Positions 958-58,848 of a DNA stretch of 64,000 nucleotides are shown piece after piece. A model generated the notes under the pieces. The model was not told the DNA's origin. It was given only the letters and a program-made list of their open reading frames with translations, and did not search any database. Each line of letters begins with the position of its first letter. Positions within the stretch are counted from its first letter, which is position 1. Made by a program: the position numbers and the translations under genes. The DNA is taken from contig CAZBPY010000002.1 in assembly GCA_964493895.1 (NCBI GenBank), positions 67,351-131,350 on the forward strand. Reading direction: 5' to 3'. The DNA comes from an uncultured Candidatus Saccharibacteria bacterium. Lineage in GTDB: Bacteria; Patescibacteriota; Saccharimonadia; Saccharimonadales; JAGQNJ01.

Positions 958-1562
958 AAGCTGGTACGCCCTTCTAGTGCCCTGGACAGCGTTATTTGAT
1001 CAGCATACTCTAAGTCTACCCCAATCGGCAGACCGCGGGCTAATCGGGTTATTTTGATTTTGCGATCACCAATTTGTTGCTGGATAAACAGGGCTGTCGA
1101 CTCGCCTTCAACTCCGGCATTGGTAGCTAGGATTATCTCTTTAACTCCGTCATCATCGATACGCTTGATTAGCTCCTTAATGCGCAGATTTTCCGGCCCA
1201 AAACCATCAATAGGTGAAATCAAGCCGCCTAACACATGATAAGTGCCCTGGTAGGCTCCGGTACTTTCCAGGGCATTAATGTCAAACGGCTCAGCTACTA
1301 CGGCTACGACTGTCTTGTCGCGCCCAGGGTCACTGTAGAGAGGCGACAGTTTCTGTCCTTTTTCAATCAAAGCAAAGGTCTTCTGGCAGTAGTCAATATT
1401 GGCGTGCAGTTTGGCCAGGTTATCGGCAATTTCTCGAGCCTTGTGCGGATCAGCTCGCAATAGATGATAAGCATATCTCTCGGCCGACCGCGGTCCGACA
1501 CCTGGCAACATGCGGAGAGCTTCAATTGCGGCTTGCAAACTGTCTGGCAATACTTTCCCCAT
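954..1562 (-). CDS. recR: recombination protein RecR (zinc-finger cysteines mostly absent)
   Basis: 202-aa ORF with HhH (LPGVGPRSAERYAYHLL) and Toprim (EIILATNAGVEGESTA) regions. Lies downstream of ybaB as in the conserved dnaX-ybaB-recR grouping. Confidence 0.9.
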   Translation of the reverse strand: MGKVLPDSLQAAIEALRMLPGVGPRSAERYAYHLLRADPHKAREIADNLAKLHANIDYCQKTFALIEKGQKLSPLYSDPGRDKTVVAVVAEPFDINALESTGAYQGTYHVLGGLISPIDGFGPENLRIKELIKRIDDDGVKEIILATNAGVEGESTALFIQQQIGDRKIKITRLARGLPIGVDLEYADQITLSRALEGRTSL

Positions 1563-4494: not shown

Positions 4495-5916
4495 TTAGTC
4501 CTCTAGTACTTCCCCACCGCCAAAAACTTTTGTTATTGACTCCAGTGTATCAGATTTAGCCGGCTGTCTTGGTTCATCTGGAGCTGGCGCAGCCTGTTTT
4601 CGGGCATTTTTATCGATCTCCGGCCTCATTTCAACCGGCTGGCCGTAGATTTCGGTAATGATAGCCTGAACCTTGTCTTGATTGCGGCTTTCAGCGAACC
4701 GCCGGCGATGAAAATCAAAGGCAAAACCCAGCACTAATACCCCACCCTCAATTGATATTGATGCCATCCGGGCAATACCATAAAGCGTATTATGCGAACC
4801 ACGCAGCTTATCTAACACCTGATCCCAAAGACCGCTTTCCAAAGCAGCCTCCAGATCGCCATTTGGCGCCGGCTTTGAGGTAGTTTTAACGTCTTGGATA
4901 ACCTTTGTTTTCTTTGGTTCGGCGGCAACCGATGCAGGTTTTGCCGCCACGGCCTCTTGACTGCCCAGGGTGTTTTCCAGTAAAACTAGTTCCAACTCTT
5001 GGTATGGTTGCAAAGAACCAGGCACATCAAGAAGCCCGCGCAGTAGCTTCAAAGCCTGACTACGCGGCAACTCGCCCTTCAAAAGAGCCGTTCGCACAGA
5101 ATCAGCCAAGTGCCGAGCCAAAACTGTGGCTTGAATTCCCCGAGATTGAGCTTCATCCAACTCGGCTAGCAGCTCTTTAGGATTATTAACATTTAATGAA
5201 CTGATAATTTTCTCAACAGTGTCGTCCGGCGGAATGCCAAGGTGTTGGCGGACGGCATCTTCAGAAATTTGATCGCTAATATTGCGCAGCTGATCCAATA
5301 AATTGATGCTGTCACGAAAGCTTCCGTTACCATGACGAGCAATAATTTGGGCGGCCGCATCGTCAAGTTTGATTTTCTCCTTCTTGGCAATAGTTTGCAG
5401 ATGCAATGCCGCCTGTTTAGTGTCGATTGGCTTGAAACTGTAGCGCTGAGTCCGGCTAACAATCGTCTCAGGCAGTTTGTGGGCCTCAGTCGTGGCCAGG
5501 ATAAAAATTACATGAGCCGGTGGTTCCTCAAGAGTCTTTAGGAGGGCATTAAAAGCTTCACGCGTTAACATATGCACCTCGTCGATAATATAGACCTTAT
5601 ACGGAGCCTGCAGCGGGCTAAGGCGGGCTTTATCTCTTAGGTCACGGATTTCATCAATCCGGCGGTTACTGGCGGCGTCAATCTCAATAATATCGATATG
5701 CTGCGAATCATCAGTTTTATAAGGCAATTTATTGACCTCATGAGCCAAAATCCTGGCTACACTAGTCTTGCCGACACCACGCGGGCCGGTGAACAAATAG
5801 GCGTGACTGATCTTACCCGATTTCAGGGCTTTATCAAGTGTGTCGGTTATGTGCTCTTGACCGATAACTTTAGACAGTTTTTTGGACCGGTGTGTCCGGT
5901 AAAGTGCTTTCCCCAT
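4495..5916 (-). CDS. dnaX: DNA polymerase III subunit gamma/tau
   Basis: 473-aa ORF with the clamp-loader AAA+ motifs GPRGVGKTS, IIDEVHML and SRTQRY. Confidence 0.93.
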   Translation of the reverse strand: MGKALYRTHRSKKLSKVIGQEHITDTLDKALKSGKISHAYLFTGPRGVGKTSVARILAHEVNKLPYKTDDSQHIDIIEIDAASNRRIDEIRDLRDKARLSPLQAPYKVYIIDEVHMLTREAFNALLKTLEEPPAHVIFILATTEAHKLPETIVSRTQRYSFKPIDTKQAALHLQTIAKKEKIKLDDAAAQIIARHGNGSFRDSINLLDQLRNISDQISEDAVRQHLGIPPDDTVEKIISSLNVNNPKELLAELDEAQSRGIQATVLARHLADSVRTALLKGELPRSQALKLLRGLLDVPGSLQPYQELELVLLENTLGSQEAVAAKPASVAAEPKKTKVIQDVKTTSKPAPNGDLEAALESGLWDQVLDKLRGSHNTLYGIARMASISIEGGVLVLGFAFDFHRRRFAESRNQDKVQAIITEIYGQPVEMRPEIDKNARKQAAPAPDEPRQPAKSDTLESITKVFGGGEVLED

Positions 5917-41500: not shown

Positions 41501-41585
41501 TGAAGCCACTCTTCAGGCTAGATCGTCTTGTCAACCTTAAAATCAAACATTTGGTGTATCTTTTTGATATCATCCTCACCAGTGA

Positions 41586-42053
41586 TTATTCAATAATTGG
41601 CAATGACTGACTGACCGATTTCATAGCTGAAATTTTTCTTTCGGTCATCCCCCAAAAGTGTTGTGCATTTCCATCCTCTAGCCAGTCTACGGTTGGTTGA
41701 AGTGTTCCCAAAACAAGAAGACTGGGCTTATATGTATATCGGCCATTCCATCCGCCATAAATAAACCTGGTCGGTATGTCTTCAGCAACTGGAAAATTTT
41801 CAGAAAGGCGGCGATACCTATTGAACAAATCTACCAATGTGCCCCATACAACACTGGCAAACAGCGGAGTTTCATCGGCATTGTCAATAGCTGCTGTTCT
41901 AAATTCTTCCCTAGTTATTACATCCGGTCTAGTTGCACTAAGTAACCCAGTTGTACCATCATATTCAACTTCAAAGCCAAGACGATTAACAAGGCCCTCG
42001 ATATAGCCCTGCTCCTGAGGTGTAACACGTCCGTTAAACTCAATACCCCGCAT
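41586..42053 (-). CDS. hypothetical protein (P161/155 aa) between tuf and rpsJ
   Basis: ATG 42053 has AAGGAA SD, while the ORF-track GTG is at 42071. GC looks lower than in the flanking genes (by eye). Confidence 0.7.
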   Translation of the reverse strand: MRGIEFNGRVTPQEQGYIEGLVNRLGFEVEYDGTTGLLSATRPDVITREEFRTAAIDNADETPLFASVVWGTLVDLFNRYRRLSENFPVAEDIPTRFIYGGWNGRYTYKPSLLVLGTLQPTVDWLEDGNAQHFWGMTERKISAMKSVSQSLPIIE

Positions 42054-42082
42054 TGTCTGTTCCTTGTCCACTAATCACAGAT

Positions 42083-42091
42083 ATTATACCA
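42083..42091 (-). promoter_or_regulatory. extended -10 promoter TGgTATAAT for P161
   Basis: Lies immediately downstream of the tuf hairpin. Confidence 0.4.
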
Positions 42092-42096
42092 TAACC

Positions 42097-42125
42097 AAAC
42101 GAGCTCTTCTGGCGAGAGCTCGTTT
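42097..42125 (-). terminator. terminator-like hairpin after tuf
   Basis: An 11-bp perfect stem AAACGAGCTCT/AGAGCTCGTTT with a 7-nt loop. The U-tract is weak (TTTGGTTAT). Confidence 0.45.
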
Positions 42126-42145
42126 TGCAATCTAGTAGTTGCGAA

Positions 42146-43327
42146 TTACTTGGTAATTTTAGTAACCACGCCGGCGCCGACAGTTCGGCCGCCTTCACGA
42201 ATGGCGAAACGTTGACCTTGGTCCATGGCAATAGGCTGGATCAGCTTAACCTTGAAGGTTACGGTATCGCCAGGCATAACCATCTCTTTGTCGGCTGGCA
42301 ACTCAACCTCTCCCGTAACATCGGTAGTTCGGAAGTAGAACTGCGGCTTGTAGCCCTTGAAGAATGGCGTATGTCGTCCGCCTTCGTCTTTGTTTAGAAC
42401 ATAAACTTCGGCGTCGAACTCAGTGTGCGGAGTGATTGAACCGGGCTTGGCGATAACCTGACCACGCTCAATATCATCACGTTCTATACCTCGAAGCAAG
42501 ATACCAGCGTTGTCACCGGCTTGACCTTGGTCAAGATTCTTCTTGAAGGCCTCAATACCAGTCACAGTAGACTTCTGAGTATCCTTCAATCCAACAATTT
42601 CAACTTCGTCGTTAAGCTTAACAACACCTGTCTCGATACGACCGGTAGCAACCGTACCTCGACCCTTGATTGAGAAGACGTCTTCAATAGCCATTAGGAA
42701 AGGCTTGTCCATGTCACGCTTTGGCTCTTCGATGTAGTCATCCATAGCCTTAACCAATTCCATGACGGCATCTTCGTTGGCTGCGTCACCTTCAAGAGCC
42801 TTAGTAGCAGAACCCTTGATAATTGGCGCGTTTTCGTCGAAGTCATTCTTAGCAAGCAATTCGCGGATATCCATTTCAACTAGCTCAACTAGTTCAGGAT
42901 CGGCGAGATCCATCTTGTTCATAAACACGATAATTTTTGGTACACCAACTTGCTTGGCCAATAGAACGTGCTCGCGAGTTTGCGGCATAGGACCATCAGC
43001 TGCTGAAACAACTAGAATTGCCCCGTCAACCTGAGCCGCACCGGTAATCATGTTCTTAACGTAGTCGGCGTGACCGGGCATGTCGACGTGAGCATAGTGA
43101 CGCTTGTCAGACTCATACTCCTGGTGAGAAGTAGCAATGGTGATACCGCGAGCCTTTTCCTCTGGAGCCTTGTCAATCTCGTCATAATTGACTTTTTTGT
43201 TAACTTCGCTTGGCAACTTCTTAGCCAAGACCGATGTGATAGCCGCTGTTAAGGTCGTCTTACCGTGGTCAACGTGACCCATGGTTCCGACGTTTACATG
43301 AGGCTTACTTCTGTCAAAATCTGCCAT
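42146..43327 (-). CDS. tuf: elongation factor Tu
   Basis: The start is moved to ATG 43327 ([29 protein letters not shown]). Confidence 0.97.
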
Positions 43328-43403
43328 TAGTTTATTTCCTTCTTTAAAACTTATTATTCTTTTCGCACACTCGAGCAACGCCCCCTATGCGAGATACTTA
43401 AGT

Positions 43404-43431
43404 ATTTTAGCTAATTGCTCGGGGTTTGTAA
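43404..43431 (-). promoter_or_regulatory. candidate tuf promoter
   Basis: TTACAA-16nt-TAAAAT. The -10 overlaps the 12-bp palindrome ATACTTAAGTAT (43394..43405). Confidence 0.4.
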
Positions 43432-43436
43432 AGAGG

Positions 43437-43676
43437 TTAAGATTGCCAATCTTCACCTATTGCCTCGCGCCCTAAACTTTTAAGAATCTCGGCTAAACTT
43501 CGATCAGCTAATTCAAAACGCTCATCCAGAATTTGATACACAGGATCATTCATTAATACTGAACCGGATTTATCACTGCGTAGCACATATGATGCCAATT
43601 CGGCACTGGCTTGGCGAAACTGACCAACAGTTTCGGTTCGTGATTCTTCTAGAGAAAGGTAGGGAGTTTGTGTCAT
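43437..43676 (-). CDS. small acidic helical protein (P79)
   Basis: 79-aa ORF starting 20 nt after the P94 stop. I recognise no family. Confidence 0.55.
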   Translation of the reverse strand: MTQTPYLSLEESRTETVGQFRQASAELASYVLRSDKSGSVLMNDPVYQILDERFELADRSLAEILKSLGREAIGEDWQS

Positions 43677-43696
43677 AAATTTAACAAATTCTTATC

Positions 43697-43981
43697 TTAT
43701 ATTCCTTCAATCTGGTCGCCAATATTGCCGTCTTCTAGGTGTGGAGGAGGAGTCAGATTAGCCGCCTCCCCGCTGCCACGGACGAATACCTCATCTCCTT
43801 CTAGATGACTGCCTATCCGATCAAAGGTTTCTCTTAGAGCAGTATTTCCTACTCCGGCCAAAAATTGGCCGCGGCTTTGCCTTGCTCTTTCAATAAGTTG
43901 TTGCCAGACACTACGGCGCGGCAAGGGTTGGGCATCATCGTCCCAATCAATCACTTCATCTGACGATATTCTCTCTACCAT
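43697..43981 (-). CDS. small acidic protein (P94), LEGGE family
   Basis: Starts 2 nt after the fusA stop. It shares DW..RRS.W, LEGDEV.VR (LEG at residues 60-62) and PP motifs with P106. Confidence 0.65.
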   Translation of the reverse strand: MVERISSDEVIDWDDDAQPLPRRSVWQQLIERARQSRGQFLAGVGNTALRETFDRIGSHLEGDEVFVRGSGEAANLTPPPHLEDGNIGDQIEGI

Positions 43982-43983
43982 AA

Positions 43984-46074
43984 TTATCCTTTGGCGTTTT
44001 TAGCTACAATTGCTTCTGCCACATTTGGCGGCACGTCGGCGTAGTGGTCAAGTTCCATGCTGGAGCTGGCTCGACCGGCCGTCATACTGCGAAGATTGGT
44101 GGTGTAACCGAACATCTCGCCTAATGGAACAAAAGCCGTGATCTCTTTAATACCGGCTTGGAGGTCCTCCATAGATTCAATCCGACCACGCTTGGAGTTC
44201 AGATCACCAATGACATCACCCATGAATTCTTCAGGGGTCACAACCACAACTTTCATGATCGGCTCTAAAAGAACCGGGTTGGCTTTCTTAACCCCTTCTT
44301 GAAGGGCCATCGAGCCAGCCACCTTAAAGGCCATCTCGCTGGAGTCAACATCGTGGTAACTTCCGTCATACAGCTCGGCCTTTATATCCACCACGGGATA
44401 GCCAGCCAAGACACCATTAGCCATAGCTTCTTCGATACCTTGTTGGACAGGTTTGATGTATTCCTGAGGAACCACGCCGCCTTTAATCGAGTTGATGAAC
44501 TCGAATCCTTTGCCAGCTTCGTTCTGGCTAAGTCGCAGCCAGACGTCACCGTACTGACCGCGTCCACCAGATTGACGAATGAATTTACCTTGGACTTCAA
44601 CACCGTCTTTGCGGATAGTTTCGCGGTAAGCAACTTGTGGTTGACCGATGTTGGCTTCGACATTGAACTCTCGCTTCATGCGGTCGACCAGAATTTCCAG
44701 GTGCAGCTCACCCATACCTTTAATGATGGTCTGGGCTGTCTCATCATCAACATTTACCTGGAAGGTCGGATCTTCCTCAGCCAATCTTTGCAAAGCCAAA
44801 CTCATCTTTTCTTGGTCGGCTTTGGTTTTGGGCTCGATAGCAATCGACACCGGCGGTTCAGGAAAAGTAATATTTTCAAGCACTACCGGATTGGCCTGAT
44901 CGCACAGGGTATTACCGGTCGTTGTGCCTTTTAGACCAACAATGGCGGCAATGTCGCCGGCACCGATTGAGTCAATGTCCTCACGCTTGTCAGCTTGCAT
45001 GCGGACTACCCGGCCAACTCGCTCTTTTTCGCCGGTTACCGAGTTGTAAACATACGACCCGGCTTTCAAAACACCCGAGTAAACTCGAACGAAGCACAAT
45101 TTACCAACAAATGGGTCGGTGGCAATCTTAAAAGCAATAGCTGCCATTGGCTCTGATTCGTCAGGTTTGCGCTCAACCTCCTCGCCAGTTTTAGGATTCT
45201 CTCCCCACACAGAGCCACGATCCAACGGGCTTGGCAGGAAATCGTTGACCAAGTCGAGTACTTTCTCAACAATGACACCCCGGCCATCACCGCCAGTCAC
45301 CGGGAAAAAATTGCCAGTCTGAGTCGCCGTTCGGATGGCCTGACGAATTTCATCTTCGCTCAGACCGTCTTCACCAACTTCGAAGTATTTCTCCAGCATG
45401 GCCTCGTCTTCAGCCACGGCGTTCTCAATTAGCAGGCTGCGGTATTTTTTAGCTTTGTCCAGCATATCTTCGGGAATTTCCCCTTCTACCAGGTTCTTAT
45501 CGGTAAATTCTTTGTAGGTATATGCCTTCATGGTGATCAGGTCGACCACTCCGTTAACCGACTGCTCGAAGCCAATTGGCAAATGAACCGGAAAAGCGTG
45601 TTTGCTAAGGCGAGCATGAATCGTGTCAAGTGATTTGTAAAAATCACCGCCGGTTTGGTTAATCTTGTTGATAAAGCAAATTCGCGGCACGCCGTACTTG
45701 TCAGCCTGGCGCCAGACAGTTTCAGATTGCGATTCAACACCCATCTTACCGTCAAAAACCGTCACAGCGCCATCAAGAACCCTCAAAGATCGTTCTACCT
45801 CAGCTGTAAAGTCAATATGGCCAGGCGTGTCGATAATATTAATCTTGTGATCTTTCCAATAACAAGTCACCGCAGCTGACGTGATTGTAATACCACGCTC
45901 TCGTTCTTGTGCCATCCAATCGGTCGTAGTTTCACCTTCATGGACCGCACCAATTTTATGCTTTAAACCAGTCCGATACAGAATGCCTTCAGTCGTGGTT
46001 GTCTTACCAGCATCAATATGAGCAATAATGCCGATGTTACGATAGTTTTTTAAATCAATTTTCTTATCTGCCAT
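43984..46074 (-). CDS. fusA: elongation factor G
   Basis: 696-aa ORF with [12 protein letters not shown] and DTPGHIDF. Confidence 0.97.
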
Positions 46075-46081
46075 TTATACC

Positions 46082-46465
46082 CTATTCTTCGCTTTGCGTT
46101 CGTTGCGTCAGACCCCACCGAGCTAAGTTCCGGCCTATCAAGCTAGTGCTGCAATAACTCTTAACAGTAAATTTACCAATATTCAATTGCTCTGGTCCCT
46201 CACAATAGTCGGCGCCCAACTGAGTTTCTAAGCCTATAAGCACTTCCAAATCATCAGCCTCTGCAAACTTGCGCTCTGCGAAAGCTTTCATACTTCTAGC
46301 ATAATCTGAATCTCCGACAAAAAGGGGATTCTCACCGGCTTGCATTCCGTATTCGGCCGTACGTTGAGCACCACTACGATAGATGTCGACAATTTTTTCT
46401 TGTGGCTTTATATAATTCCGAAGAAAGCGAGGGCACTCCGAACAGTTTTCAAAAGTCCTGGCCAT
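46082..46465 (-). CDS. hypothetical Cys-motif protein (P127) inserted between rpsG and fusA
   Basis: 127-aa ORF lying 3 nt after the rpsG stop and 7 nt before the fusA ATG. It has the motifs CSECP, ENPLFVG, CEGP and C, colinear with P126. Confidence 0.7.
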   Translation of the reverse strand: MARTFENCSECPRFLRNYIKPQEKIVDIYRSGAQRTAEYGMQAGENPLFVGDSDYARSMKAFAERKFAEADDLEVLIGLETQLGADYCEGPEQLNIGKFTVKSYCSTSLIGRNLARWGLTQRTQSEE

Positions 46466-46468
46466 AGT

Positions 46469-46945
46469 TTACCTCGCAAAGTGGGCGAAAGCTCGGTTGG
46501 CTTCGGCCATCTTATGTGTATCTTCGCGCTTCTTAACAGAAGTCCCGGTGTTATTGTAAGCATCGACCAATTCAGCAGCAATTCGATCTTCAGTTGACAT
46601 ACCAGACTTGGCTCGTACAGCTTGGACAAACCACAGGATTGTCAGATGAGACTGTCGTTGACCTTTAACCTCAAATGGAATCTGATAGTTAGCACCACCT
46701 ACTCGTCGTGACCGAGTCTCAACACTGGGTTGAATATTCTTAAAAGCTTGCTCAAAAACCTCCAGAGGATTGTCAACTTTCAAACGATCTGCCGCCTTTT
46801 GCATGCCGTTATATACTAATCGCTCGGCAACCTGTTTTTTGCCGTCATGCATAATGCGGTTTATGACACGCTGAACCATCACGCTATTGTAGACGCGATC
46901 GGCCGGAATGTCTCGAACTAGTGATTTGGTCTTCTTCCTGGGCAT
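46469..46945 (-). CDS. rpsG: 30S ribosomal protein S7
   Basis: 158-aa ORF beginning [21 protein letters not shown]. Confidence 0.96.
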   Translation of the reverse strand: MPRKKTKSLVRDIPADRVYNSVMVQRVINRIMHDGKKQVAERLVYNGMQKAADRLKVDNPLEVFEQAFKNIQPSVETRSRRVGGANYQIPFEVKGQRQSHLTILWFVQAVRAKSGMSTEDRIAAELVDAYNNTGTSVKKREDTHKMAEANRAFAHFAR

Positions 46946-47358
46946 TATTTGCCAGCCTTTTTGGTGCCGTACTTACTTCGGCCCTGTTTACGGTCTTGAA
47001 CACCTTGTAGGTCAAGCGCACCACGGACTATGTGGTAGCGTACACCCGGGAGGTCCTTTACGCGTCCACCACGGATTAGGACTACGGCGTGTTCCTGTAG
47101 GTTATGGCCTTCACCACCGATGTAAGCCCAAACTTCGTGACCATTTTGCAGTCGGACACGAGCCACCTTACGAAGCGCCGAGTTCGGCTTTTTAGGTGTT
47201 TTGGTAGTCACTTTAACGCAAACCCCGCGCTTGAATGGTGATGGTTTTTCATAGTTAGTCGTCGTCAGGTTGTTAACCACGCGGTGCAGTGCCGGAGACT
47301 TCGATTTCTTAGTCACCTTGGCACGCGGTTTTCGAACTAATTGATTGATTGTTGGCAT
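46945..47358 (-). CDS. rpsL: 30S ribosomal protein S12
   Basis: 137-aa ORF with [12 protein letters not shown] and [11 protein letters not shown]. Confidence 0.97.
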
Positions 47359-47373
47359 CAGCGTATCATCCTA

Positions 47374-50300
47374 TCAGTTTTCACCTTCTTCGTCAACAGA
47401 GGTCGCATCAGCATCGTCCTTGGCGTAAGCATTGTAGCCTGTGCCGACAGGGATCATTCGACCCAAGATAACGTTCTCTTTCAGGCCGCGCAAATGATCG
47501 ACTTTGCCACTGGTAGCAGCAGCAATTAGCACTCGTGTTGTGTCCTGGAAGCTAGCCGCCGATAAGAATGACTCTGTCGACAAACTAGCCTTGGTAATTC
47601 CAAGCAGTAACTGGCTGTACTGAATTAGTTTCTTGCCAGCCCTGGCCAACTCTTCGTTGGTATCGAGCACATCAACTTTACTGACAATGTCACCGGTTAC
47701 GAACTCACTATCACCGGCATCCTCGATCTGAACTCGAGAGAACATCTGTCGAACGATCACTTCCAGGTGCTTGTCGGCAATGTGCTGACCTTGGCTGGCA
47801 AAGATACGCAGAACTTCGTTCATGATGTAACGTTGGGTGGCTTCAACACCTTGCAGGCGCATCAGCTCGTGCAGGTTGATCGAACCGTTGGTCAAACGTT
47901 GACCAGCTACAACTTTGTCGCCATCCTTGATGGTCAGTTGTTTGTAGCCAGGAATTTCATAGCGCTCGATTTCCTGCTTAGCCGGTGAAATGGTTATAGC
48001 CGATTTGTTGACCGAAGCCTTACCGGCTATCGGCGCAATCAACGGGTTAGAGTCGTTCTCGGCACTAGCTAACACATCACCGATGGCCACTTCAGTGCCG
48101 GATTCAATCCGCGGTGTGCGGCTTTCCAGTTTCAGCTCGACCTTTTGCTTGTCATCGGTTGTCACTTGAACTATGTACTGATCTCCCTCTTCCCAAACAT
48201 TGGCCGTACCAGCGACTTCTGACAAATAGGCTTGTCCTTTTGGAGCTCGAACTTCAAAGATTTCTTCAACACGCGGCAGACCTTGAGTAATGTCATCAGC
48301 CGCCGCCGAGCCGCCGCCGTGATAAGACCGCAGGGTCAGCTGGGTTCCAGGCTCACCAATACTCTGTGCCGCCACGACACCTATAGGATAGTGCGAGCTA
48401 ACCACTTCGCCGGTGGCTGGATCAATGCCGTAAGATTTGCGCGATACACCGCGCGGGCTGCTGCAGCTTAGCACCGACATGATCTTTACACCGTCAACTT
48501 TAGTGTCCTTATCGATAGCATTAGCAATTGCTCGGGTTATGAGCTCGCCCTTCTTAACATGGCCTGGCACATTTTCAGCAGCATAGCGACCTTCAAGTCG
48601 GAAACCATAACTGACACCTATAAACTCGGCGTCAGCTCGGTTCATAGTAAAGCCAGGGTCTGGGGCTTCCTCATTATCCGTAAAGACATCCTGAGAAACA
48701 TCAACCAGACGACGAGTCAGGTAGCCAGAATCAGCGGTTTTTAGAGCTGTATCGATCATGGTCTTTCTGGTACCGCGAGTTGAGGTGAAATACTCCAATG
48801 GACTTAGACCGCGTTTGTAGCCAGACTTAATCGGCAGCTCAATGGCCCGACCGGTAGTATCCATGGTTACGCCCAAGATACCGACGGCGTTTTTAACTTG
48901 GCCGATGTTACCGCGGGCTCCAGACACAACGGCTGTAGACATAGAACTGTCTTCCTGATCGAATTGCAAACTCAGGACCTTCTTAACTTCGGCATCGGCT
49001 TCCATCCAAGCATCAACCGTTAGGCGGTAACGCTCATCCTCAGTAATGAAGCCTTGGTCATATTGTTCACTAATTTCGGTGACTTTCTTTTCACCTTCAT
49101 CAAGAATTTGCTGCAATCCCTTAATGTCGCTGAAGTCGTCCATACCCAGGCTCAGACCAGAGAAAGTGGCATACTCAAAACCTAAGTCTTTCAAATCATC
49201 GGCAATTTGGGCGGTCACGTCTGGACCATATTGCTCGTATATTTCCGACATCACGTCTGAAAGTTGCTTCTTGGTCATGGTCTGGTCTTTGAACTTAAAG
49301 TCGTCGGGCATTATTTCATTGAACAGCAGGCGGCCCAGCGTTGTCTCGCGGACTGCTCCGCGAAAAGGTAGCTTGACTCGACTTTGCAGAATTATTTCAC
49401 CAGCGTCATAGGCCATAACAGCTTCGTCCAACGAGGCAAAAGCCTCGGCTTCACCGGCTACTCCCGGGCGTTCGTAGGTTAAGTAGTAACAGCCTAAAAC
49501 AATATCTTGCTCAATATGCAAAATGGGTGAACCGTCGGCCGGTTTTAGCAAGTTCTTATTGCTAGCCATAATCTCGCGAGCTTCTTTCTGTGAAGCCACC
49601 GACAACGGCAAGTGTACAGCCATCTGGTCACCATCGAAGTCAGCATTGAAACCTTTACAAACCAATGGGTGCAGTTGAATCGCCTTACCTTCGATTAGCT
49701 TTGGCTGGAAGGCCTGAATCGACAGACGGTGCAGTGACGGTGCACGATTCAACAGAACATACTTGCCCTTGATGACTTCGTCCAGGGCATCCCAAACCGG
49801 AGTCTCACCCAGCTCGATCATGCGGGTAGCCGATCGAATATTGTGGGCAAATTCGTTCTCAATTAGATGACCGATCACGAATGGCTTGAATAGTTCCAAA
49901 GCCATCATCTTTGGCAGGCCGCATTCGTCAATCTTAAGTTCCGGCCCGGCTACAATCACCGAACGGCCAGAGTAGTCAACTCTTTTTCCAAGCAAGTTCT
50001 GGCGGAAACGACCCTGCTTACCTTTCAGCATGTCGGACAGCGACTTTAGTCGACGCCGTTGACCGCTGGCTGCCACGGCTCGGCCACTCCGAGCGTTACC
50101 GTTGTCGATAAGGGCGTCAACGGCTTCTTGCAGCATACGCTGTTCATTACGGCAAATAACCTCAGGAGCATTCAAATCAATCAACTTCTTCAACCGATTA
50201 TTGCGGTTAATAACCCTCCTATAAAGATCATTTAGATCGGAAGTGGCAAATCGACCACCGGTCAGTTGTACCATTGGCCTTAGATCCGGAGGTATTACTG

Positions 50301-51195
50301 GCAAAATAGTCACGCACATAGAATTTGGTTTGATCCCAGCCCGCTCCATAGACTCTAGCAAGCGCAGGCGCTTCATCAATTTCTTCTTCCGCTGGCCTTT
50401 GGCCTCTTCGGCTTCATCAGACAATTGTTTGATCAATTTAGCCAAGTCGATTTCGTCTAGCAGCTCTTTAATGGCTTCGCCACCCATGCCGACTTCGACG
50501 ATATCTTGAAGTTCGTCAGGCAAGTTGTTGTAGTCTCCCTCTGAAATCAGACCATACTTGACCAGCATATCCAGCTGATTCATTAGTTCAAGATGAGTAG
50601 TTTCCAGCTCTTCCAACTCTTTAGTTCGAGCTGCTGCCAAAGCTTTGACATCGGCGTCTTCTTTCTTGCCTTCAGCTTCGTAGCGAGCATTAATGGCTTC
50701 AACAGCTGCCTTGTACTCGGCCTCTTTATCCTCGCGGTATTTGTCGCGAGCCTTTTCATCAACAGATTTAAAAATGTATGCTGCAAAGTAAGCCACCCGT
50801 TCCAGGTTTTTAACTGTCATATTAAGCAGCAAGCCGATAGCTGATGGCGTACCGCGTAAGAACCAAATGTGAGCCACTGGGCTGGCCAATTTAATATGAC
50901 CCATTCGTTCACGGCGGACAATTGAGCGAGTAACGATTTCGCCATTCTTATCGACAGCGGCTTCTCTTGACCGAACACCCTTGTACTTAGCGTCGTGAGG
51001 ATTAATATCTTTGACCGGACCAAAAATGCGCTCACAAAATAGGCCATCACGTTCTGGTTTTTGAGTTCGATAGTTAATTGTTTCCGGCTTTAAAACTTCA
51101 CCGTGTGACCATTCCAAAATATCGGCAGCGCTGGCTACAGCCAACCGAACCGCATCAAAATCAGCAATGTCTGGACCGCTTGAATATCGTCGCAT
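47374..51195 (-). CDS. rpoC: DNA-directed RNA polymerase subunit beta-prime (both zinc sites lack most Cys ligands)
   Basis: The start is moved to ATG 51195 (AGGAGG SD, 1 nt after the rpoB stop). The catalytic motif [12 protein letters not shown] is present. Confidence 0.96.
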
Positions 51196-51196
51196 C

Positions 51197-54100
51197 TTAA
51201 GCCTCCTCTCCTTCACTCACATTGGTATCTTCTTCTCCTGAACTGGAAGTCACACTGGCCATGTCGCCTTCAATGTCCATGATATCGAACTCATCAACAC
51301 CGTCTTCTTTAGTCATATCTACTTCGGAGACTTCTGGCTGCGGCACATCAACTTCGGCCTGGTGTTTAGCTTCGTCCTTGATGTTTTCAGCCAAAACTGC
51401 TTCGGCGTCGACAACTTTTTCGCTGGTGATCAGATCAACCTTCAGACCCAGACCTTGCAATTCCTTGACCAGCACATTAAATGACTCAGGAACCTTTGGT
51501 CCAACAATATCTGTACCTTTTATGATTGATTCATAGGCTTTGGATCGTCCGTACACATCGTCAGATTTAATGGTTAGCATTTCTTGCAGAGTATGAGCCG
51601 CGCCATAAGCTTCCAGAGCCCAAACCTCCATTTCACCAAACCTTTGACCACCGTTTTGAGCCTTGCCGCCCAATGGCTGTTGGGTAACCATAGTGTATGG
51701 ACCAGTTGACCTGGCATGAATCTTGTCAACAATCATGTGGTTAAGTTTGATCATGTACATAGAACCAACAGTTGTAGTTTCCGAGAATGGCTCACCGGTT
51801 CGGCCATCAAATAATTGTTGCTTGCCGTTTTCCGGATAGCCGGCTTGCTTTAAGAGTTCGCGGATCTTGTCAATTGGCACGCCATTAAACGGCGGTGTGA
51901 CAACTTTCATTCCGAGGGCCCGAGCGGCCATACCCAAGTGGGTTTCAAACAGCTGGCCAATGTTCATACGGCTTGGCACGCCCAGTGGGTTAAGGACAAT
52001 GTCCACCGGTGTTCCGTCTTCCATATACGGCATGTCTTCAACCGGTAGGACTCGGGCAATAACACCCTTGTTACCATGACGGCCACCTAATTTATCTCCA
52101 ACCGCAATCTTGCGCATCTGCGCCACAAAGACCTGAACCTGCATTAGCACGCCAGCCTTCAATTCGTGGCCGTTCTCGCGAGAGAAGACTTTAACACCGA
52201 CAACTTTGCCGTGTTTACCGTTACTCATGCGCTGGGAGGTGTCACGAACATCCTTGGCCTTTTCACCAAAAATGGCCCGAAGCAAGCGCTCTTCCGAACT
52301 CAGTTCCTGCTCGCCCTTTGGCGTAATCTTTCCAACCAAGATGTCGCCGGGGTGAACTTCAGCACCTATTCGGACAATTCCATCATCATCCAGGTGCCGC
52401 AGCGCATCTTCGGAAACATTAGGAATGTCGCGAGTGACAATTTCCGGACCTAATTTGGTCTCACGCACTTCAGTCATGTAATCCACAATGTGAATCGATG
52501 TCAGGCTGTCATCTTCAACCAGTTTGCGCGAAATAATTACAGCATCCTCGAAGTTATAACCTTTCCACGGCATGAAAGCTACAATCAAATCCTTACCAAG
52601 TGCCAGTTCGCCACCCTGGATTGACATACCTTCAATGATTGGCTGGCCTTTCTTAACCTTATCGCCAGCGCTAACCACAACCTTTTGATTAATACAGCTG
52701 CCTTCGTTACTGCGGACAAAGTGCTGGGGTTGATAAGTTACTTTACCGGCTTTCTTGTACTTTATAACAACCTGTTCAGCAGTAGCCGATACCACCTCGC
52801 CATCTTCTTCAGCTACGGTCAGCTGGCCAGTATTTTGTGCCACTGTAGACTCCAGACCAGTACCGACAATTGGCGAATCCGGCTGAATTAACGGCACCGC
52901 TTGGCGCTGCTGGTTGCTTCCCATCAAACTTCGATAAACATAGTTCTTTTCAATGAACGGAATCAAACCGGCACTGGAGCCAATAATTTGCCTGAGGCTG
53001 GCGTCCATATGAGTCACTTCATTAGCGTCAGTTTCACCTGATTTCAGACGAATGCGAGCCGAGACACGATCATCAATAAAGTAACCATCATTGCCAAACT
53101 TTTCATCGGCGCTGGCAATTACGGCTTTTTCCTCTTCAGCGGCATCAAGATATTCGACTTTATCAGTGACTTTAGCCTTTACGGGCCAGGTAATTTGGCT
53201 TTTTACAGCCGCTAGTTTCTTAGCATCAGCTGCTGTGATAGTCTTGCCGGCTTTAACGATAACTTTACCCTTTTCATCTTCCAGATCAACTGCGGCAATG
53301 TGTCCGGAAGCATCTTTGGCTGTAACTGCATTAATAACTTTGCGGTAAGGCGTTTCCATAAAACCGTAGTCATTAATCCGGGCATAGGCAGCCATGTTCA
53401 ACACCAAACCGATGTTGGCGCCTTCAGGCGTTTCCACAGCACAGATTCGGCCATAGTGAGTGGCGTGAGCATCGCGAACTTCAAAACCGGCTCGTTCGCG
53501 GGATAATCCGCCGGGTCCCATTGAACTTAAACGGCGTTTGTGAGCCAGCTCGGACAGAGGGTTAATCTGATCCATAAACTGAGACAATTGGGAGCTGGCA
53601 AAGAACTCGCGAACAGCCGCCACGATTGGCCGAGCATTGACCAACTGTCCAGGGGTAACTGTCTCAATTTCCGACATCGACATGCGGTCCTTGGTGTTAC
53701 GCTCCATGCGTAGTAAGCCGATGCGGAACTGGCGCTGGACCAACTCCCCAACTAACTTGACTCGCCGATTTGCTAGCGAGTCAATGTCATCTGCTGGTTC
53801 CTGAGTGTTATTAAGGCGAATAATTTCAGCAATGATGGCAATCAAATCTTCCAGTCGCATAACCCGGTTTTCGGCCGTATTGGGCACATCCAGGTCAAGG
53901 CGCTTATTAATCTTATAGCGACCGACCCTGGAAAAATCGAAACGTTTGAAGTTATAAAACATATTTTCTAGCAGTGACCGGGCGTTGTCGACAGTGGCCA
54001 AATCACCCGGGCGCAGACGGCGGTAGACCTCAATTAAGGCATCGTTGGTGCCTTTGGCCGGATCCTTGTCCAGGGTTGCATCAATATAGTTAGTTTCTCC

Positions 54101-54751
54101 CTGATCAACGTGAGCGAAACTTTCGCGAATTTTATTCTCTGTCAATCCCAAAGCCCGAAGCAGAGTTGTAACAGGAATCTTGCGCTTGCGGTCAATTTTA
54201 ACGTACATAGCGCCGTTGGCAGCCGTCTCAAACTCTAACCAAGCTCCGCGGCCAGGGATTACCTTAGCACCATACAGATTTCGCGAACCATGCTGATCGG
54301 CCGTGAAGAAAACGCCAGCCGAACGGATCAGCTGGCTAACTACCACTCGTTCGGCGCCGTTAATCACGAAAGTACCGCGAGAGGTCATCCATGGGTAGTC
54401 ACCCAAATAAATTTCCTGCTTCTTAACTTCACCAGTAACTTTATTGGTCAAAACTACCGTGGCCTTCAACGGAGCATCAAAAGTAACGTTATTCTCGCGA
54501 GCCTCAGATTCGGTAACTTTTGGCTTGTCAAATTTATAATCCTTAAAACTCAAGGTCAGCTTGGTACCGGTGTAATCTTCGATCGGACTGATTTCAGCCA
54601 ATAGCTCGCCGAGCCCTTCTTCTACGAACCACTGAAAGGACTTGTTTTGATGATCTACCAAGTTTGGCAAGTCGATGATGTCATCGGCCTTAGTAAAATA
54701 CGTGCGTTTAGTTGGTTTTATTGAGGTTGAGGTCTTGGACTGTTTTGGCAT
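51197..54751 (-). CDS. rpoB: DNA-directed RNA polymerase subunit beta
   Basis: 1184-aa ORF with GEMEVWALEAYGAA and an acidic C-terminal tail. Confidence 0.97.
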   Translation of the reverse strand: MPKQSKTSTSIKPTKRTYFTKADDIIDLPNLVDHQNKSFQWFVEEGLGELLAEISPIEDYTGTKLTLSFKDYKFDKPKVTESEARENNVTFDAPLKATVVLTNKVTGEVKKQEIYLGDYPWMTSRGTFVINGAERVVVSQLIRSAGVFFTADQHGSRNLYGAKVIPGRGAWLEFETAANGAMYVKIDRKRKIPVTTLLRALGLTENKIRESFAHVDQGETNYIDATLDKDPAKGTNDALIEVYRRLRPGDLATVDNARSLLENMFYNFKRFDFSRVGRYKINKRLDLDVPNTAENRVMRLEDLIAIIAEIIRLNNTQEPADDIDSLANRRVKLVGELVQRQFRIGLLRMERNTKDRMSMSEIETVTPGQLVNARPIVAAVREFFASSQLSQFMDQINPLSELAHKRRLSSMGPGGLSRERAGFEVRDAHATHYGRICAVETPEGANIGLVLNMAAYARINDYGFMETPYRKVINAVTAKDASGHIAAVDLEDEKGKVIVKAGKTITAADAKKLAAVKSQITWPVKAKVTDKVEYLDAAEEEKAVIASADEKFGNDGYFIDDRVSARIRLKSGETDANEVTHMDASLRQIIGSSAGLIPFIEKNYVYRSLMGSNQQRQAVPLIQPDSPIVGTGLESTVAQNTGQLTVAEEDGEVVSATAEQVVIKYKKAGKVTYQPQHFVRSNEGSCINQKVVVSAGDKVKKGQPIIEGMSIQGGELALGKDLIVAFMPWKGYNFEDAVIISRKLVEDDSLTSIHIVDYMTEVRETKLGPEIVTRDIPNVSEDALRHLDDDGIVRIGAEVHPGDILVGKITPKGEQELSSEERLLRAIFGEKAKDVRDTSQRMSNGKHGKVVGVKVFSRENGHELKAGVLMQVQVFVAQMRKIAVGDKLGGRHGNKGVIARVLPVEDMPYMEDGTPVDIVLNPLGVPSRMNIGQLFETHLGMAARALGMKVVTPPFNGVPIDKIRELLKQAGYPENGKQQLFDGRTGEPFSETTTVGSMYMIKLNHMIVDKIHARSTGPYTMVTQQPLGGKAQNGGQRFGEMEVWALEAYGAAHTLQEMLTIKSDDVYGRSKAYESIIKGTDIVGPKVPESFNVLVKELQGLGLKVDLITSEKVVDAEAVLAENIKDEAKHQAEVDVPQPEVSEVDMTKEDGVDEFDIMDIEGDMASVTSSSGEEDTNVSEGEEA

Positions 54752-54922
54752 AAAAGCGTTATCTGCTCCTTATAGATAGAGCCACTCTGTCGACATCAGC
54801 CATGTCAACAAAGAGGATTCCGTTGATTTATTTGATTAAGCGCTCGAAGATCTCTAAGGGGTATATGTGCCGAAACGTAGGGAAATTCCAGCACTGCCCG
54901 CTTACCCTACTTCTTAATGTCT

Positions 54923-54951
54923 AGTATAGCTTTTTTATAAATAGGAGTCAA
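54923..54951 (-). promoter_or_regulatory. candidate rpoBC promoter
   Basis: TTGACT-17nt-TATACT, about 170 nt upstream of the rpoB ATG. Confidence 0.4.
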
Positions 54952-54960
54952 CACTAAATT

Positions 54961-55641
54961 TTAGAAATGTTCAGCAGTTTTAAGAAAGGGTGCTTGGCCT
55001 TCCAAGGCGATTAAAAAGTCACTTACTGATACGTCGCCATAACGAATCATTTCCAGTGACTTACTGCCGAATTCAACCGGCTCCACCCGGCTGCGTGGTT
55101 TCGGTCGTAAGCCTAAAGACTCGAACCACTCATTTGTTCGAGTAGACTCCTTGTAGGCATCTAACATAACTTCAGATCTGAGATCATAATCACTTGTCGC
55201 AGCGTAAAGCATAGCGCTGCCAATACCCTGCTGCGGAACAGTAGTGGCAACTTCATCGATATAGCATCTGTCTGCGCCCAAAATCCGCCAACGTCTGGGT
55301 AATGGACTGGCTTGAACAACGCCAACTCGTTCTTGACCTAGGTCGTCAACTAATTCTTCATAGGCCAGCCAATATGATGATGTACCTTGGGCGATTTGCT
55401 CGTTCATTCGTTTGGTCCTATGGCGAATGCTGGCAAAATCACTTATTAACCCTCTGGTAATATCTGCCTGTTTCACAAGTCCTTGTCTGCCGACAAATTC
55501 GCGCCTGTAAGCACTCCGGATAATGTTCGTAATGTGCTCCGCGGTGCGACGTCTTGACCTTTGGACTCTCTCAACGACTACAGCATCGCCATTCCACCTC
55601 TCAAATCTATAGGCGTTAGGTTTCTCGATGCTATCAGCCAT
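54961..55641 (-). CDS. GNAT-family N-acetyltransferase-like protein
   Basis: 226-aa ORF with a motif-A-like YIDEVATTVPQQGIGSAMLYAA and a C-terminal NEWFESLGL. Confidence 0.6.
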   Translation of the reverse strand: MADSIEKPNAYRFERWNGDAVVVERVQRSRRRTAEHITNIIRSAYRREFVGRQGLVKQADITRGLISDFASIRHRTKRMNEQIAQGTSSYWLAYEELVDDLGQERVGVVQASPLPRRWRILGADRCYIDEVATTVPQQGIGSAMLYAATSDYDLRSEVMLDAYKESTRTNEWFESLGLRPKPRSRVEPVEFGSKSLEMIRYGDVSVSDFLIALEGQAPFLKTAEHF

Positions 55642-55703
55642 TAATAATCTCCTCGTTATCGGGACATATAATGTTCTATAATATCATAGTCTATGAGTCA
55701 ATA

Positions 55704-56300
55704 TTAACGGCTGGTGATAACCTTGTCGACAAGACCGTAGTCTTTGGCTTCTTCGGCGGTCATCCAGCGGTCGCGCTCCATGTCATCATGGATTTTAGCC
55801 TTTTTCTGGCCGGTATTGTTGACCATAATATCTTCGATTAAGCCCTTGATACGCAAGGCCTCCTTGAGATCGATTTCTTGATCGGTAACTTTTCCGCGGG
55901 TGCCACTCGAAGGCTGATGTATCATGACGGTCGAATTCTTAAGCAAAAACCGCTTGCCCTTTGTGCCAGAACTTAGCAATATGGCCGCCGCACTGGCTTG
56001 AACACCAATGCCGACTGTTTCAATATCACACTTGACGAATTGCATGGTGTCATAAATCGCTAATGCGTCATAAACACTGCCGCCGGGGCTATTAATGTAG
56101 AGCTTGATGTCTTTTTTGGGGTCTTCAGCCTCTAAAAACAGTAGCTGGGCGACAATTAAGTTAGCAGTGTGTTCATCAACCGGCGTACCAAGAAAAATAA
56201 TGCGCTCTTTTAACAGACGTGAATAGATGTCATAAGCCCGCTCCATGCGGCCTTCAGTTTCAATAACTGTTGGAACAAGAATATTGGATGGTTTGCTCAT
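55704..56300 (-). CDS. clpP: ATP-dependent Clp protease proteolytic subunit
   Basis: The start is moved to ATG 56300 ([38 protein letters not shown]), 7 nt after TATAAT. Confidence 0.93.
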
Positions 56301-56307
56301 GTTTAGC

Positions 56308-56336
56308 ATTATAAGCCACCAATTAGCACTCGTCAA
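56308..56336 (-). promoter_or_regulatory. clpP promoter (leaderless-type)
   Basis: TTGACG-17nt-TATAAT-7nt-ATG. The -35 sits in the CIRCE spacer. Confidence 0.5.
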
Positions 56337-56349
56337 GTGAGAGTGCTAA
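56323..56349. promoter_or_regulatory. CIRCE element (HrcA operator), perfect consensus
   Basis: TTAGCACTC-gtcaagtga-GAGTGCTAA equals the published consensus TTAGCACTC-N9-GAGTGCTAA with 0 mismatches. Confidence 0.85.
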
Positions 56350-56717
56350 TTATGAAGTCCGAATACCTGAGATTCTAGGTCTCGCGACTGGTTTTCCTGA
56401 CGATTTCGCTGCCACATATTAGCAAGTCGGGCTCCGGCCCAGAATGCACCCAGGAGCACGCCGCCGGCAACCCCTGCAGCGCCAAATGAGATCAGTTCTT
56501 CAGAGTAAACTGACCAATCAAATAATTGAACATCAGCTAGCATTTGTGGACCACCCTGTGGTAGATGAACCGTAACCTCCTCAACCCGGCCAGCCCACAA
56601 TGCGGCAGCCCCAAGCCCGCCAACAATCACTGCCGGCTTCCCGGTTATCCCATCAATTATTCGATTATTTTCTTCGTAGCGCTGGGGAATGGTTTGTTCT
56701 AATTGTTCAACTGCCAT
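56346..56717 (-). CDS. Gly/Ala-rich 2-TM membrane protein (P124) between tig and clpP
   Basis: ATG 56717 has AGGTGA SD. The hydrophobic segments are AVIVGGLGAAALWAG and FGAAGVAGGVLLGAFWAGA. Confidence 0.6.
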   Translation of the reverse strand: MAVEQLEQTIPQRYEENNRIIDGITGKPAVIVGGLGAAALWAGRVEEVTVHLPQGGPQMLADVQLFDWSVYSEELISFGAAGVAGGVLLGAFWAGARLANMWQRNRQENQSRDLESQVFGLHN

Positions 56718-56769
56718 CACTTCACCTGCCTTTCAACAAGCACAAATTACCATAAAAGAGTGCCGCTGT

Positions 56770-58053
56770 CTATTTTGTGGCGTATTCCACCAATTTCTGA
56801 ATGGTTTTTTCAGTCAGCATGCGGCTGGCAATGTCTCGTTGAGCCTCCGGCTTGTCCAGCTCGGCCTGCATAGCAGCATCCTGATACTGGCTCCTCAACA
56901 TTTGCATTCGCATCTCAAGTTCATCCGGGCTAACTTCCAGTCCTTCCTTATCAGCAATTTCAGCCAGCACCAGTCCAGCGCGTACCCGTTGTTCAGCTTC
57001 GGGGATTAGGATTTCTTGGCGATACTCTTCCTCTGTTTTATCTTCACGCTTTAGAAACTCCTCAAAGGTTAGACCGCGGTAAACCAGGTTTTGGCGCAGC
57101 TCATTCATCAGTCGCTCGACCTGATCGTTAATCATCACCTCTGGAACAGTCAGCTTACTCTTAGCCGCCACCTCTTTTATAACCTCACCTTCGAGGTTCT
57201 GCATAGCTTGGCTCTGTCGCTCTCGACTCAATTCGGCCTTGATATTGTCGCGCAGCTCCTTAACAGTCTTAAACGGTCCAGCCTGAGTTGCAAATTTATC
57301 ATCCACTTCGGGTAAGGTTTGCTCCTCGACTTTCTTAACCTTAACTGTGAAGGTAACTTTTGAACCGGCTAAAGCTTTGACCCCATAATCTTTGGGGAAG
57401 GTTAGGCTGAAGGTTTTCTCCTGGCCGGCTTTTACGCCAATCAGATTCTTTTCAAAGCCGGGTATAAACTGATCACTGCCCAGCACCAAGGGATAGTCCT
57501 TGCCCTCCGCGCCGTTGATAACTTTGCCGTCAGCGTCGACACCTTTGAAGTCAATCTCAACTTTGTCGCCGCTGGCCGCAGTTCGCTTTACGGATTTACT
57601 GCTCGCCAATCTCTGCTGCAGACTCCTGACCACATCATCTACATCTTTGTCCTTAACCGACACTTTAGGCAGTGTCTTCTTGATTTTCTTATAGTCTGCC
57701 AGCTTGATCTCACCAAGCACTTCAACTTCGGCGCTAAATTCCAAATTGGTAAACGGCACAAATTTTTTCAGTGTTACTTTCGGATTGTCTACCGGCCGCA
57801 ACTTTTCCTGATTCACAGCATCGGTGTACAGGTGATTGATGGCATCCTCGACGACATCAGCCTGCAATCGCTGCTGGTCAATATTTTTCTCGACTACGTT
57901 AAGCGGTGCTTTGCCTTCGCGAAAGCCCTGAACTTTGACCTCCTTGGCCAGTTTCTCTAGAACATGGTTTTTATACTCAGCCAGCTGGTCCTCGCCAGCA
58001 GTGATAGTCAGCTCAACCTTATTGTCAGATAGATTTTTCCGAGTTATATGCAT
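56770..58053 (-). CDS. tig: trigger factor
   Basis: 427-aa ORF with a three-domain trigger-factor layout, including an FKBP-like middle region (GDKVEIDFKGVDADGKVINGAEGKDYPLVLGSDQFIPGFE). Confidence 0.93.
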   Translation of the reverse strand: MHITRKNLSDNKVELTITAGEDQLAEYKNHVLEKLAKEVKVQGFREGKAPLNVVEKNIDQQRLQADVVEDAINHLYTDAVNQEKLRPVDNPKVTLKKFVPFTNLEFSAEVEVLGEIKLADYKKIKKTLPKVSVKDKDVDDVVRSLQQRLASSKSVKRTAASGDKVEIDFKGVDADGKVINGAEGKDYPLVLGSDQFIPGFEKNLIGVKAGQEKTFSLTFPKDYGVKALAGSKVTFTVKVKKVEEQTLPEVDDKFATQAGPFKTVKELRDNIKAELSRERQSQAMQNLEGEVIKEVAAKSKLTVPEVMINDQVERLMNELRQNLVYRGLTFEEFLKREDKTEEEYRQEILIPEAEQRVRAGLVLAEIADKEGLEVSPDELEMRMQMLRSQYQDAAMQAELDKPEAQRDIASRMLTEKTIQKLVEYATK

Positions 58054-58061
58054 AGGCGGCT

Positions 58062-58070
58062 ATTGTAACA
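58062..58070 (-). promoter_or_regulatory. extended -10 promoter TGtTACAAT 8 nt upstream of tig ATG (leaderless-type)
   Basis: Minus strand reads TGtTACAAT-agccgcct-ATG with no SD. Confidence 0.45.
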
Positions 58071-58114
58071 GAGTTCACCTCTGAAATCTAGTTGTTGCCA
58101 GCCGGGTGAGCGCC

Positions 58115-58813
58115 TTAGGTTACCAAAGATATGGCTACACCGGCGCTAAGACCAACTCCGGCTCCGACATTGCAAACTCGGTCTTGCCCACGTCTAATGG
58201 AGTCATAGATTGGTTCTTCTTGCTCGAGAACCTCTAGAGTATTGGCCAACGAGGGACTGTCTGGACTGGTTAAAGGCAGCTGCGATGTTCTAAACAATGC
58301 AACACGCTTACCAATAGAAGATGATGCTAGTGCGGTTAGATCTAGAACCAATCCACCTGCTACCATAACTTCGAACCCATTATCCAATATCGAATCGTGT
58401 TCACCGTGTTGACTAATTACAATACCAAGCCCAAATCTTGACATAATTCCTCCTAGGAACGGGGGGAAATGCCCGTCGACGACGCTTTGAGCCACGGTCA
58501 TCGCTTGAGACGCCCTATGCCTTCTTTCTTGAGCTAAAAAACTTGCAACCACTCCAGTTGAGCCATTGGCGGCATCTAGTATGCGTTCAACTGAGCTTGT
58601 ATATTCACTAGCATAATCCATCCGTGTTTCAGCTAATGACTCCCTCCTTTCTGACTGTCGATTGGCAAAGCGGGCCTTTGAAACCAAATCTATAGGTGAT
58701 CCGAAGTATGGCCTTAGGTCGTTTGTGTATCTTTCTCTAGGCTGCCAAAGGCCACGCTCGGTCTTGTATATCGCATCATTGATTTCAGGGCTGAGGCTAG
58801 CCGTTCTGAACAT
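58115..58813 (-). CDS. hypothetical protein (P232), Gly/Ala-rich hydrophobic C-terminus
   Basis: 232-aa ORF between hisS and tig. I recognise no family. Confidence 0.6.
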   Translation of the reverse strand: MFRTASLSPEINDAIYKTERGLWQPRERYTNDLRPYFGSPIDLVSKARFANRQSERRESLAETRMDYASEYTSSVERILDAANGSTGVVASFLAQERRHRASQAMTVAQSVVDGHFPPFLGGIMSRFGLGIVISQHGEHDSILDNGFEVMVAGGLVLDLTALASSSIGKRVALFRTSQLPLTSPDSPSLANTLEVLEQEEPIYDSIRRGQDRVCNVGAGVGLSAGVAISLVT

Positions 58814-58848
58814 ATAAAAATACTACTCCAACCCAGAAAGATATACAA

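Follow-up and report, generated by a model that had tools for sequence, protein, structure and literature searches.

Probable ancient loss of both Cys4 zinc sites from the RNA polymerase beta-prime subunit of Saccharibacteria

Both four-cysteine (Cys4) zinc sites of the RNA polymerase beta-prime subunit (RpoC) were probably lost long ago in Saccharibacteria, as one part of a process that stripped structural zinc sites built on cysteine from core information-processing proteins throughout the lineage, in organisms with a low-cysteine proteome. Bacterial RNA polymerase contains two zinc ions, long regarded as conserved parts of its structure, and canonical beta-prime has two Cys4 sites for them: one in the N-terminal domain that binds zinc (the ZBD) and one in the C-terminal part. 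The RpoC encoded in the stretch of Saccharibacteria DNA analysed here (the window, 64,000 nucleotides) has instead 0 of 4 cysteines at the first site and 1 of 4 at the second, meaning that seven of the eight zinc-ligand cysteines of beta-prime have been replaced. With less assurance, we also lean towards a wider statement: that Saccharibacteria possess a naturally zinc-free multisubunit RNA polymerase, in which the replacement of both sites dates to the base of the lineage and went together with a purge of Cys4 modules from proteins of replication, recombination and translation.

Save for these two sites, the window protein is an RpoC orthologue by every test. The gene (47374..51195, minus strand) encodes 1273 aa and scores 1412.7 bits against the NCBIfam rpoC model TIGR02386 (cutoff 963.5). 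Rpb1 domains 1-5 occur in order: in Pfam, PF04997, PF00623, PF04983 and PF04998 are above their cutoffs, and domain 4 (PF05000) reaches 19.6 bits, under its gathering cutoff of 24.8. The catalytic Mg2+ motif NADFDGD (residues 517-523; 49627..49647, minus strand) is intact in the translation and in alignment, so the enzyme core is canonical; an earlier note on this DNA likewise took beta-prime to be otherwise well conserved. Identity to E. coli RpoC (sequence from a RefSeq genome) is 47.1% by MAFFT, and the exact 1273-aa sequence is also found in a protein collection with NCBI as its source. The coding sequence is contained in a minus-strand ORF at 47374-51216 (stop codon included at 47374); its real start is the ATG at 51195, which is preceded by the ribosome-binding site GGAGAGGAGG and lies one base past the rpoB stop codon. 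The rpoB gene (51197..54751, minus strand; 1184 aa with 2 Cys; NF001616/TIGR02013 in NCBIfam) is immediately upstream, and genes for S12, S7 and EF-G, read from ORF translations without a database match, are downstream; a relative (L121) has the identical gene order with Pfam labels. Domain order, the NADFDGD motif, the rpoB-rpoC-rpsL-rpsG-fusA context and the length of the ZBD are thus all shared with canonical beta-prime (E. coli RpoC, Thermus beta-prime). The window protein has 7 cysteines in total; E. coli RpoC has 15 and two canonical representatives have 16. We file it as an RpoC variant, outside the zinc-binding subclass.

The neighbourhood of the gene has some features of its own. Directly upstream of rpoB is a 226-aa ORF (54961-55641, minus strand) with no Pfam match. 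Within the str operon, between putative rpsG (46469-46945) and fusA (43984-46074), an uncommon position for an additional gene, lies a 127-aa ORF (46082-46465, minus strand) that also has no Pfam match and is unusually cysteine-rich for this genome (4 Cys, including a CSEC motif). Two small ORFs (79 and 94 aa; 43437-43981, minus strand) sit between putative fusA and tuf. In L121, which is a deep-branching relative, rpoB appears as a pair of ORFs that overlap (447 and 717 aa; 6525-9981), likely through a frameshift or assembly error.

The N-terminal ZBD equivalent spans F58-I101 (FGPVKD...RRERMGHI; 50893..51024, minus strand), has the E. coli length in gapless alignments and contains no cysteine. 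Residues 11-134 of the window protein align without gaps to residues 15-138 of E. coli beta-prime (phmmer, PDB chains), and the 30-residue loop between FGPxKD and RRERMGHI aligns with E. coli and with every PDB chain shown without a gap. All four ligand codons that have been replaced fall in the segment I64-G85 (50941..51006, minus strand), as placed by alignment and translation. On that strand, E. coli C70 is replaced by P66 (CCT, 50998-51000), C72 by D68 (GAC, 50992-50994), C85 by V81 (GTC, 50953-50955) and C88 by N84 (AAT, 50944-50946). Both phmmer and MAFFT give these four replacements, 0 of the 4 cysteines being present, and they are the ones that the earlier note had read from the sequence; the E. 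coli segment that it quoted agrees with RefSeq E. coli rpoC, and its statement that the two segments are equal in length is borne out by the gapless alignment. Each of the four codons is at least two nucleotide changes from TGY, which excludes a base-calling or read error.

The C-terminal site (E. coli C814, C888, C895 and C898) has been dismantled as well. In alignments, the region of the first ligand (Q835-F849; 48649..48693, minus strand) is acidic and without cysteine, E. coli C814 corresponding to E842 or a gap. In the region of the remaining triad (S907-G923; 48427..48477, minus strand), C888 is kept as C911, C895 has become S918 and C898 has become S921, leaving C911 as the one cysteine of four. 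The same holds across the clade: among the 47 loci covering the second site, the triad region has no cysteine in 26 and one in 21, and the first-ligand region lacks cysteine in all but one among the 40 commonest variants listed.

How widely is the cysteine-free ZBD distributed? The closest metagenomic homologues (the best 120 among 5.8 billion clustered proteins) are all at least 87% identical to the query and show very little variation, with the cysteine-free segment in 117 of the 117 that were readable. Further out, an 80-residue query spanning the ZBD was run with HMMER against 1.84 billion representatives clustered at 50% identity. Among the best 150 matches, about 20 were cysteine-free and formed one discrete group at the top; every other regex-readable sequence among those 150 had all four canonical cysteines (in one, a fifth sits elsewhere in the loop). 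Four full-length cluster representatives (P0124, P0129, P0131 and P0132) belong to the cysteine-free group and are 51-55% identical to the window RpoC, compared with 48-50% for canonical protein. All four have lost both zinc sites, and one of them stands in a window-like gene order (HisRS - trigger factor - ClpP - rpoB - rpoC - S12 - S7 - EF-G). A seemingly more divergent cysteine-free domain, P0159, was discarded, as rpoB and rpoC are shredded into many small ORFs in its assembly, GCA_015473145.1. The corresponding locus (L122, positions 1-12606; BNJS01002711.1, a 235-kb contig) has Saccharibacteria-like rpoB and rpoC in this broken form and represents either a frameshift-ridden assembly or pseudogenes.

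When GTDB species, each represented by a single genome, were scanned with a degenerate DNA pattern encoding FGPx[KR]DINP..R..A[VI]D[KR]xG, at least 120 species-level genomes matched the cysteine-free motif. Most of the 80 record titles listed are Candidatus Saccharibacteria, Saccharimonadales, Saccharimonas, Nanosynbacter or Nanoperiomorbaceae, and the guess in the earlier note that the DNA came from a member of the CPR was right: the organism belongs to Saccharibacteria (TM7; Patescibacteria/CPR). The oddly titled records (Dongiaceae, Dormiibacterota, Nomurabacteria, "bacterium") have RpoC that is 73-91% identical to other matched RpoC, mostly with Saccharibacteria titles; the three metagenome-assembled genomes titled Dongiaceae, Dormiibacterota and Nomurabacteria (L041, L065 and L075) are probably mislabelled, or contaminated or mis-binned. 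Being common to a whole lineage of at least 120 species genomes, the cysteine-free ZBD is not special to the window. Because it is common to lineages in which RpoC identity is no more than 51-77%, the loss would be ancient, and on these comparisons the absence of both beta-prime zinc sites appears to be an old, fixed trait of Saccharibacteria and not a quirk of the window genome.

Other cysteine-zinc modules in the window have gone the same way. First, in RecR (gene at 954-1562, minus strand) three of the four cysteines of the zinc-finger region are replaced: residues 58-82 (YCQKTF...LSPLYSD; 1317..1391, minus strand) align to PDB RecR 3vdp ('yCkiCf..evCdiCsd') with C, T, S and Y at the ligand positions, giving a C..T / S..Y pattern where PDB RecR proteins have C..C / C..C. 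Second, DnaX (tau/gamma; 473 aa; 4495-5916, minus strand) has no cysteine in the whole protein, and its zinc-module site (5668..5742, minus strand; alignment to 1njf) is about 13 residues shorter than that of E. coli gamma. Third, the 38-aa ribosomal protein L36 (29522..29638, minus strand) has no cysteine and reads KKISPDDK...VINK where zinc forms have C..C...C. The window versions of L33, S14 and S4 are cysteine-poor as well; such forms are common elsewhere and carry little weight. With the second beta-prime site, RecR, DnaX and L36 all affected, the change is not specific to the domain at the RNA exit channel. The losses in RecR and DnaX are probably reportable as findings in their own right.

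Cysteine is also scarce overall. It makes up 32 of 13,129 residues (0.24%) in 51 identified housekeeping proteins of the window, 0.50% in the window ORFs of at least 200 aa, and 0.34% in 349 ORFs of at least 200 aa from 120 related loci, 63 of which (of the 349) have no cysteine at all; typical bacteria have near 1%. Motifs typical of metalloenzymes with His and Glu ligands remain in the window: a YgjP-like peptidase has HELAH, and an AstE/AspA-like protein has HGNE. Their retention suggests that cysteine-thiolate structural sites, and not zinc itself, are what is avoided. Two adjacent 238-aa ORFs with 6 Cys each (60066-61498, minus strand) are the richest in cysteine of all the window's proteins: one is the AstE/AspA-like protein with the HGNE motif, and the other has no Pfam match.

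A cysteine-free ZBD might still bind a metal, either zinc or a different divalent ion, with H67, D68, D82 and N84/E84 as its new ligands, and conservation gives this idea some footing. Residues were tallied in 118 clade members. The genome pattern itself fixes D63, I64, N65, P66, R75, A80, V/I81, D82 and G85, and invariance at these positions, which partly reflects how the loci were found, was set aside when judging conservation. Among positions free of the pattern, H67 is conserved at 93%, D68 at 99%, K70 and K72 at 97% each, G73 at 99%, S76 at 94%, R77 at 100% and E78 at 99%; H67, D68 and D82 (the last at 100%, but pattern-fixed) are thus conserved beside or at former ligand positions. The former ligand positions themselves do not make a metal site. 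Position 66 is P and position 81 is V or I, residues unable to ligate metal; position 68 is D in 117 members and S in one, and it is S in the deep lineage P0132; and position 84 varies (N in 83, E in 27, K in 5, S in 2 and Q in 1). H67 is replaced by Y, N or F in 8 of the 118. In addition, His and Asp are common at positions 67 and 82 in canonical Cys4 domains (ECHCG, CDRCG), where they lie between the ligands, which argues that they were inherited and are not new ligands. The earlier note had named alternative His, Asp or Cys ligands as the thing to look for, and no invariant set of three or four metal-ligating side chains was found at the ZBD in the 118 members. We therefore regard rebinding of a metal as unlikely. 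With two positions unable to ligate and a third variable, a metal-free ZBD is the most probable state judging from these sequences. The zinc-free domain proposed in the earlier note stands in that it has neither cysteines nor a substitute ligand set; as an account it was incomplete, since the second site and the RecR, DnaX and L36 modules were lost too.

The zinc-free ZBD could also be a specific adaptation of elongation or termination control that has co-evolved with abundant attenuators, and a link of this kind had been suggested in the earlier note. The functions of the E. coli domain make the idea attractive: the ZBD binds nascent RNA elements, modulates pausing and antitermination and docks nascent-RNA regulators (PMC9378689), and it touches spacer DNA through K74 and K87, which affect transcription from promoters with a weak -35 element (bioRxiv 10.1101/2020.01.02.893370). 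Yet the basic residues that contact nucleic acid are conserved: five of the six are kept, E. coli K74, K76, K79, R81 and K87 corresponding to K70, K72, R75, R77 and K83, and the sixth, E. coli R77, is G73 in the window protein. Nor are terminator-like sites enriched around the operon: such hairpins numbered 26 in window positions 40000-59999, compared with 19.8 +/- 4.7 in shuffles, and promoter-like sites numbered 32 compared with 25.4 +/- 4.6. Across the 64 kb, Rfam gave a single cis-regulatory match, an ordinary L10 leader at 7749-7884. Moreover, zinc sites with no role at the RNA exit (the second beta-prime site and those of RecR, DnaX and L36) were lost in parallel. The proposed tie to attenuators was not upheld, and we give an adaptation of termination control a slim chance, slimmer than that of a substitute metal site.

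As to the L10 leader itself, it scores 53.5 bits on the minus strand and lies upstream of putative rplJ and rplL. This putative rplJ-rplL operon is about 47 kb from rpoBC and is not directly upstream of it.

Slightly less probable again, and to our minds very improbable, is that the ZBD is a decaying vestige under relaxed selection, its cysteines having gone because its function has gone. The genomes of Saccharibacteria are indeed highly reduced, and these bacteria live as epibionts (PMC12815258), which is a setting where decay might be looked for. The loop does not behave as decaying sequence, however. Its length is constant at 30 residues, with no insertions or deletions in about 240 sequences; it is at least as conserved as its flanks (mean major-residue frequency 0.90 vs 0.82); and it is 53-80% identical between deep clusters whose whole proteins are 51-55% identical. 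The length, the basic contact residues and most other positions seem to be under strong purifying selection, which points to a domain still at work. From this conservation we infer that the ZBD is a folded, working, zinc-less ribbon.

That the missing cysteines are an artefact of sequencing or assembly, of a pseudogene or of contamination has a negligible chance: metagenome-assembled genomes are unreliable in general, and the related L122 locus has shredded rpoB and rpoC, but here the ORF runs unbroken for 1273 aa and has every catalytic motif, each ligand codon is two or more bases from TGY, and sequences of this type turn up in at least 120 independent genomes and hundreds of fragments from metagenomes.

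If the sites were indeed lost in a general removal of structural cysteines, the ZBD would keep its two-hairpin ribbon by other means, with hydrophobic packing of P66 and V81 and polar hydrogen bonds of D68 and N84 taking the place of the metal. The metal-free domain would presumably still do its work on upstream DNA and at the channel through which RNA exits. The likely driver would be a saving on cysteine thiolates, or their avoidance, in an epibiont whose genome is reduced, and not altered termination control. An AlphaFold2 model of residues 1-134, made with a shallow alignment of 35 close homologues only, has a mean pLDDT of 33.8 and a pTM of 0.19, values too low for it to speak for or against the ribbon fold.

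The closest known parallels come from the ribosome. Makarova, Ponomarev and Koonin reportedly described in 2001 zinc-independent "C-minus" forms of the zinc-ribbon ribosomal proteins L36, L31, L33 and S14. The window RpoC has followed the same route, in which the length of the ribbon and its place in a large complex are kept and the cysteine ligands are replaced; its ZBD is a homologue of a Cys4 ribbon with replaced ligands and unchanged length, as a C-minus form is, and the window's own L36 is a C-minus protein. There are also differences. C-minus ribosomal proteins are usually extra paralogues that are switched on under zinc starvation, whereas the window RpoC is a catalytic subunit, is fixed across its lineage and is the sole rpoC seen (no second copy was found in the 64-kb window). 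That cysteine-free RpoC is fixed across the clade speaks against its being a conditional back-up. Within transcription, the nearest case is DksA2 of Pseudomonas, a paralogue of the RNA-polymerase-binding factor DksA that has no cysteine finger and is independent of zinc. Like RpoC, it is a protein of the transcription machinery in which a Cys4 finger has been changed to non-ligand residues, and DksA2 has kept its function; unlike RpoC, it is not the core enzyme but an accessory factor that serves as a conditional back-up, and it is no lineage-wide replacement. The clamp zinc sites of archaeal and eukaryotic Rpo1/Rpb1, which occupy a homologous position near the RNA exit, have kept their Cys/His ligands. 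No published account of beta-prime zinc sites without cysteine, in Saccharibacteria or other CPR, was found in the full texts open to readers without a subscription; Saccharibacteria genomes have been public for years, and an unindexed mention could exist.

Mutagenesis in E. coli has assigned separate roles to the two sites: beta-prime needs the C-terminal one in order to fold and assemble, and termination and antitermination behaviour depends on the N-terminal ZBD. If the loss of both is as we read it, neither zinc ion would be intrinsically required for folding, assembly or exit-channel function, and the finding would surprise RNA polymerase specialists. A lineage without either site would be a natural experiment on which residues can replace the metal and on whether zinc serves function or only the fold, and it could offer a template for engineering zinc-independent or oxidation-resistant polymerases. 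It would also mean that Saccharibacteria live with a radically thinned cysteine-zinc proteome. Together with the parallel losses in RecR, DnaX and L36, a cysteine content of 0.24-0.5% points to an undescribed constraint acting on these epibionts at the level of the lineage; candidates are cysteine supply, thiol oxidation and access to zinc, and the constraint may bear on dependence on the host. A cultured representative, Nanosynbacter lyticus TM7x, exists, making the role of structural zinc directly testable.

Elsewhere in the window, a single 778-aa ORF (9292-11628, minus strand) joins an N-terminal thymidylate kinase domain to a C-terminal ThyX flavin-dependent thymidylate synthase domain.
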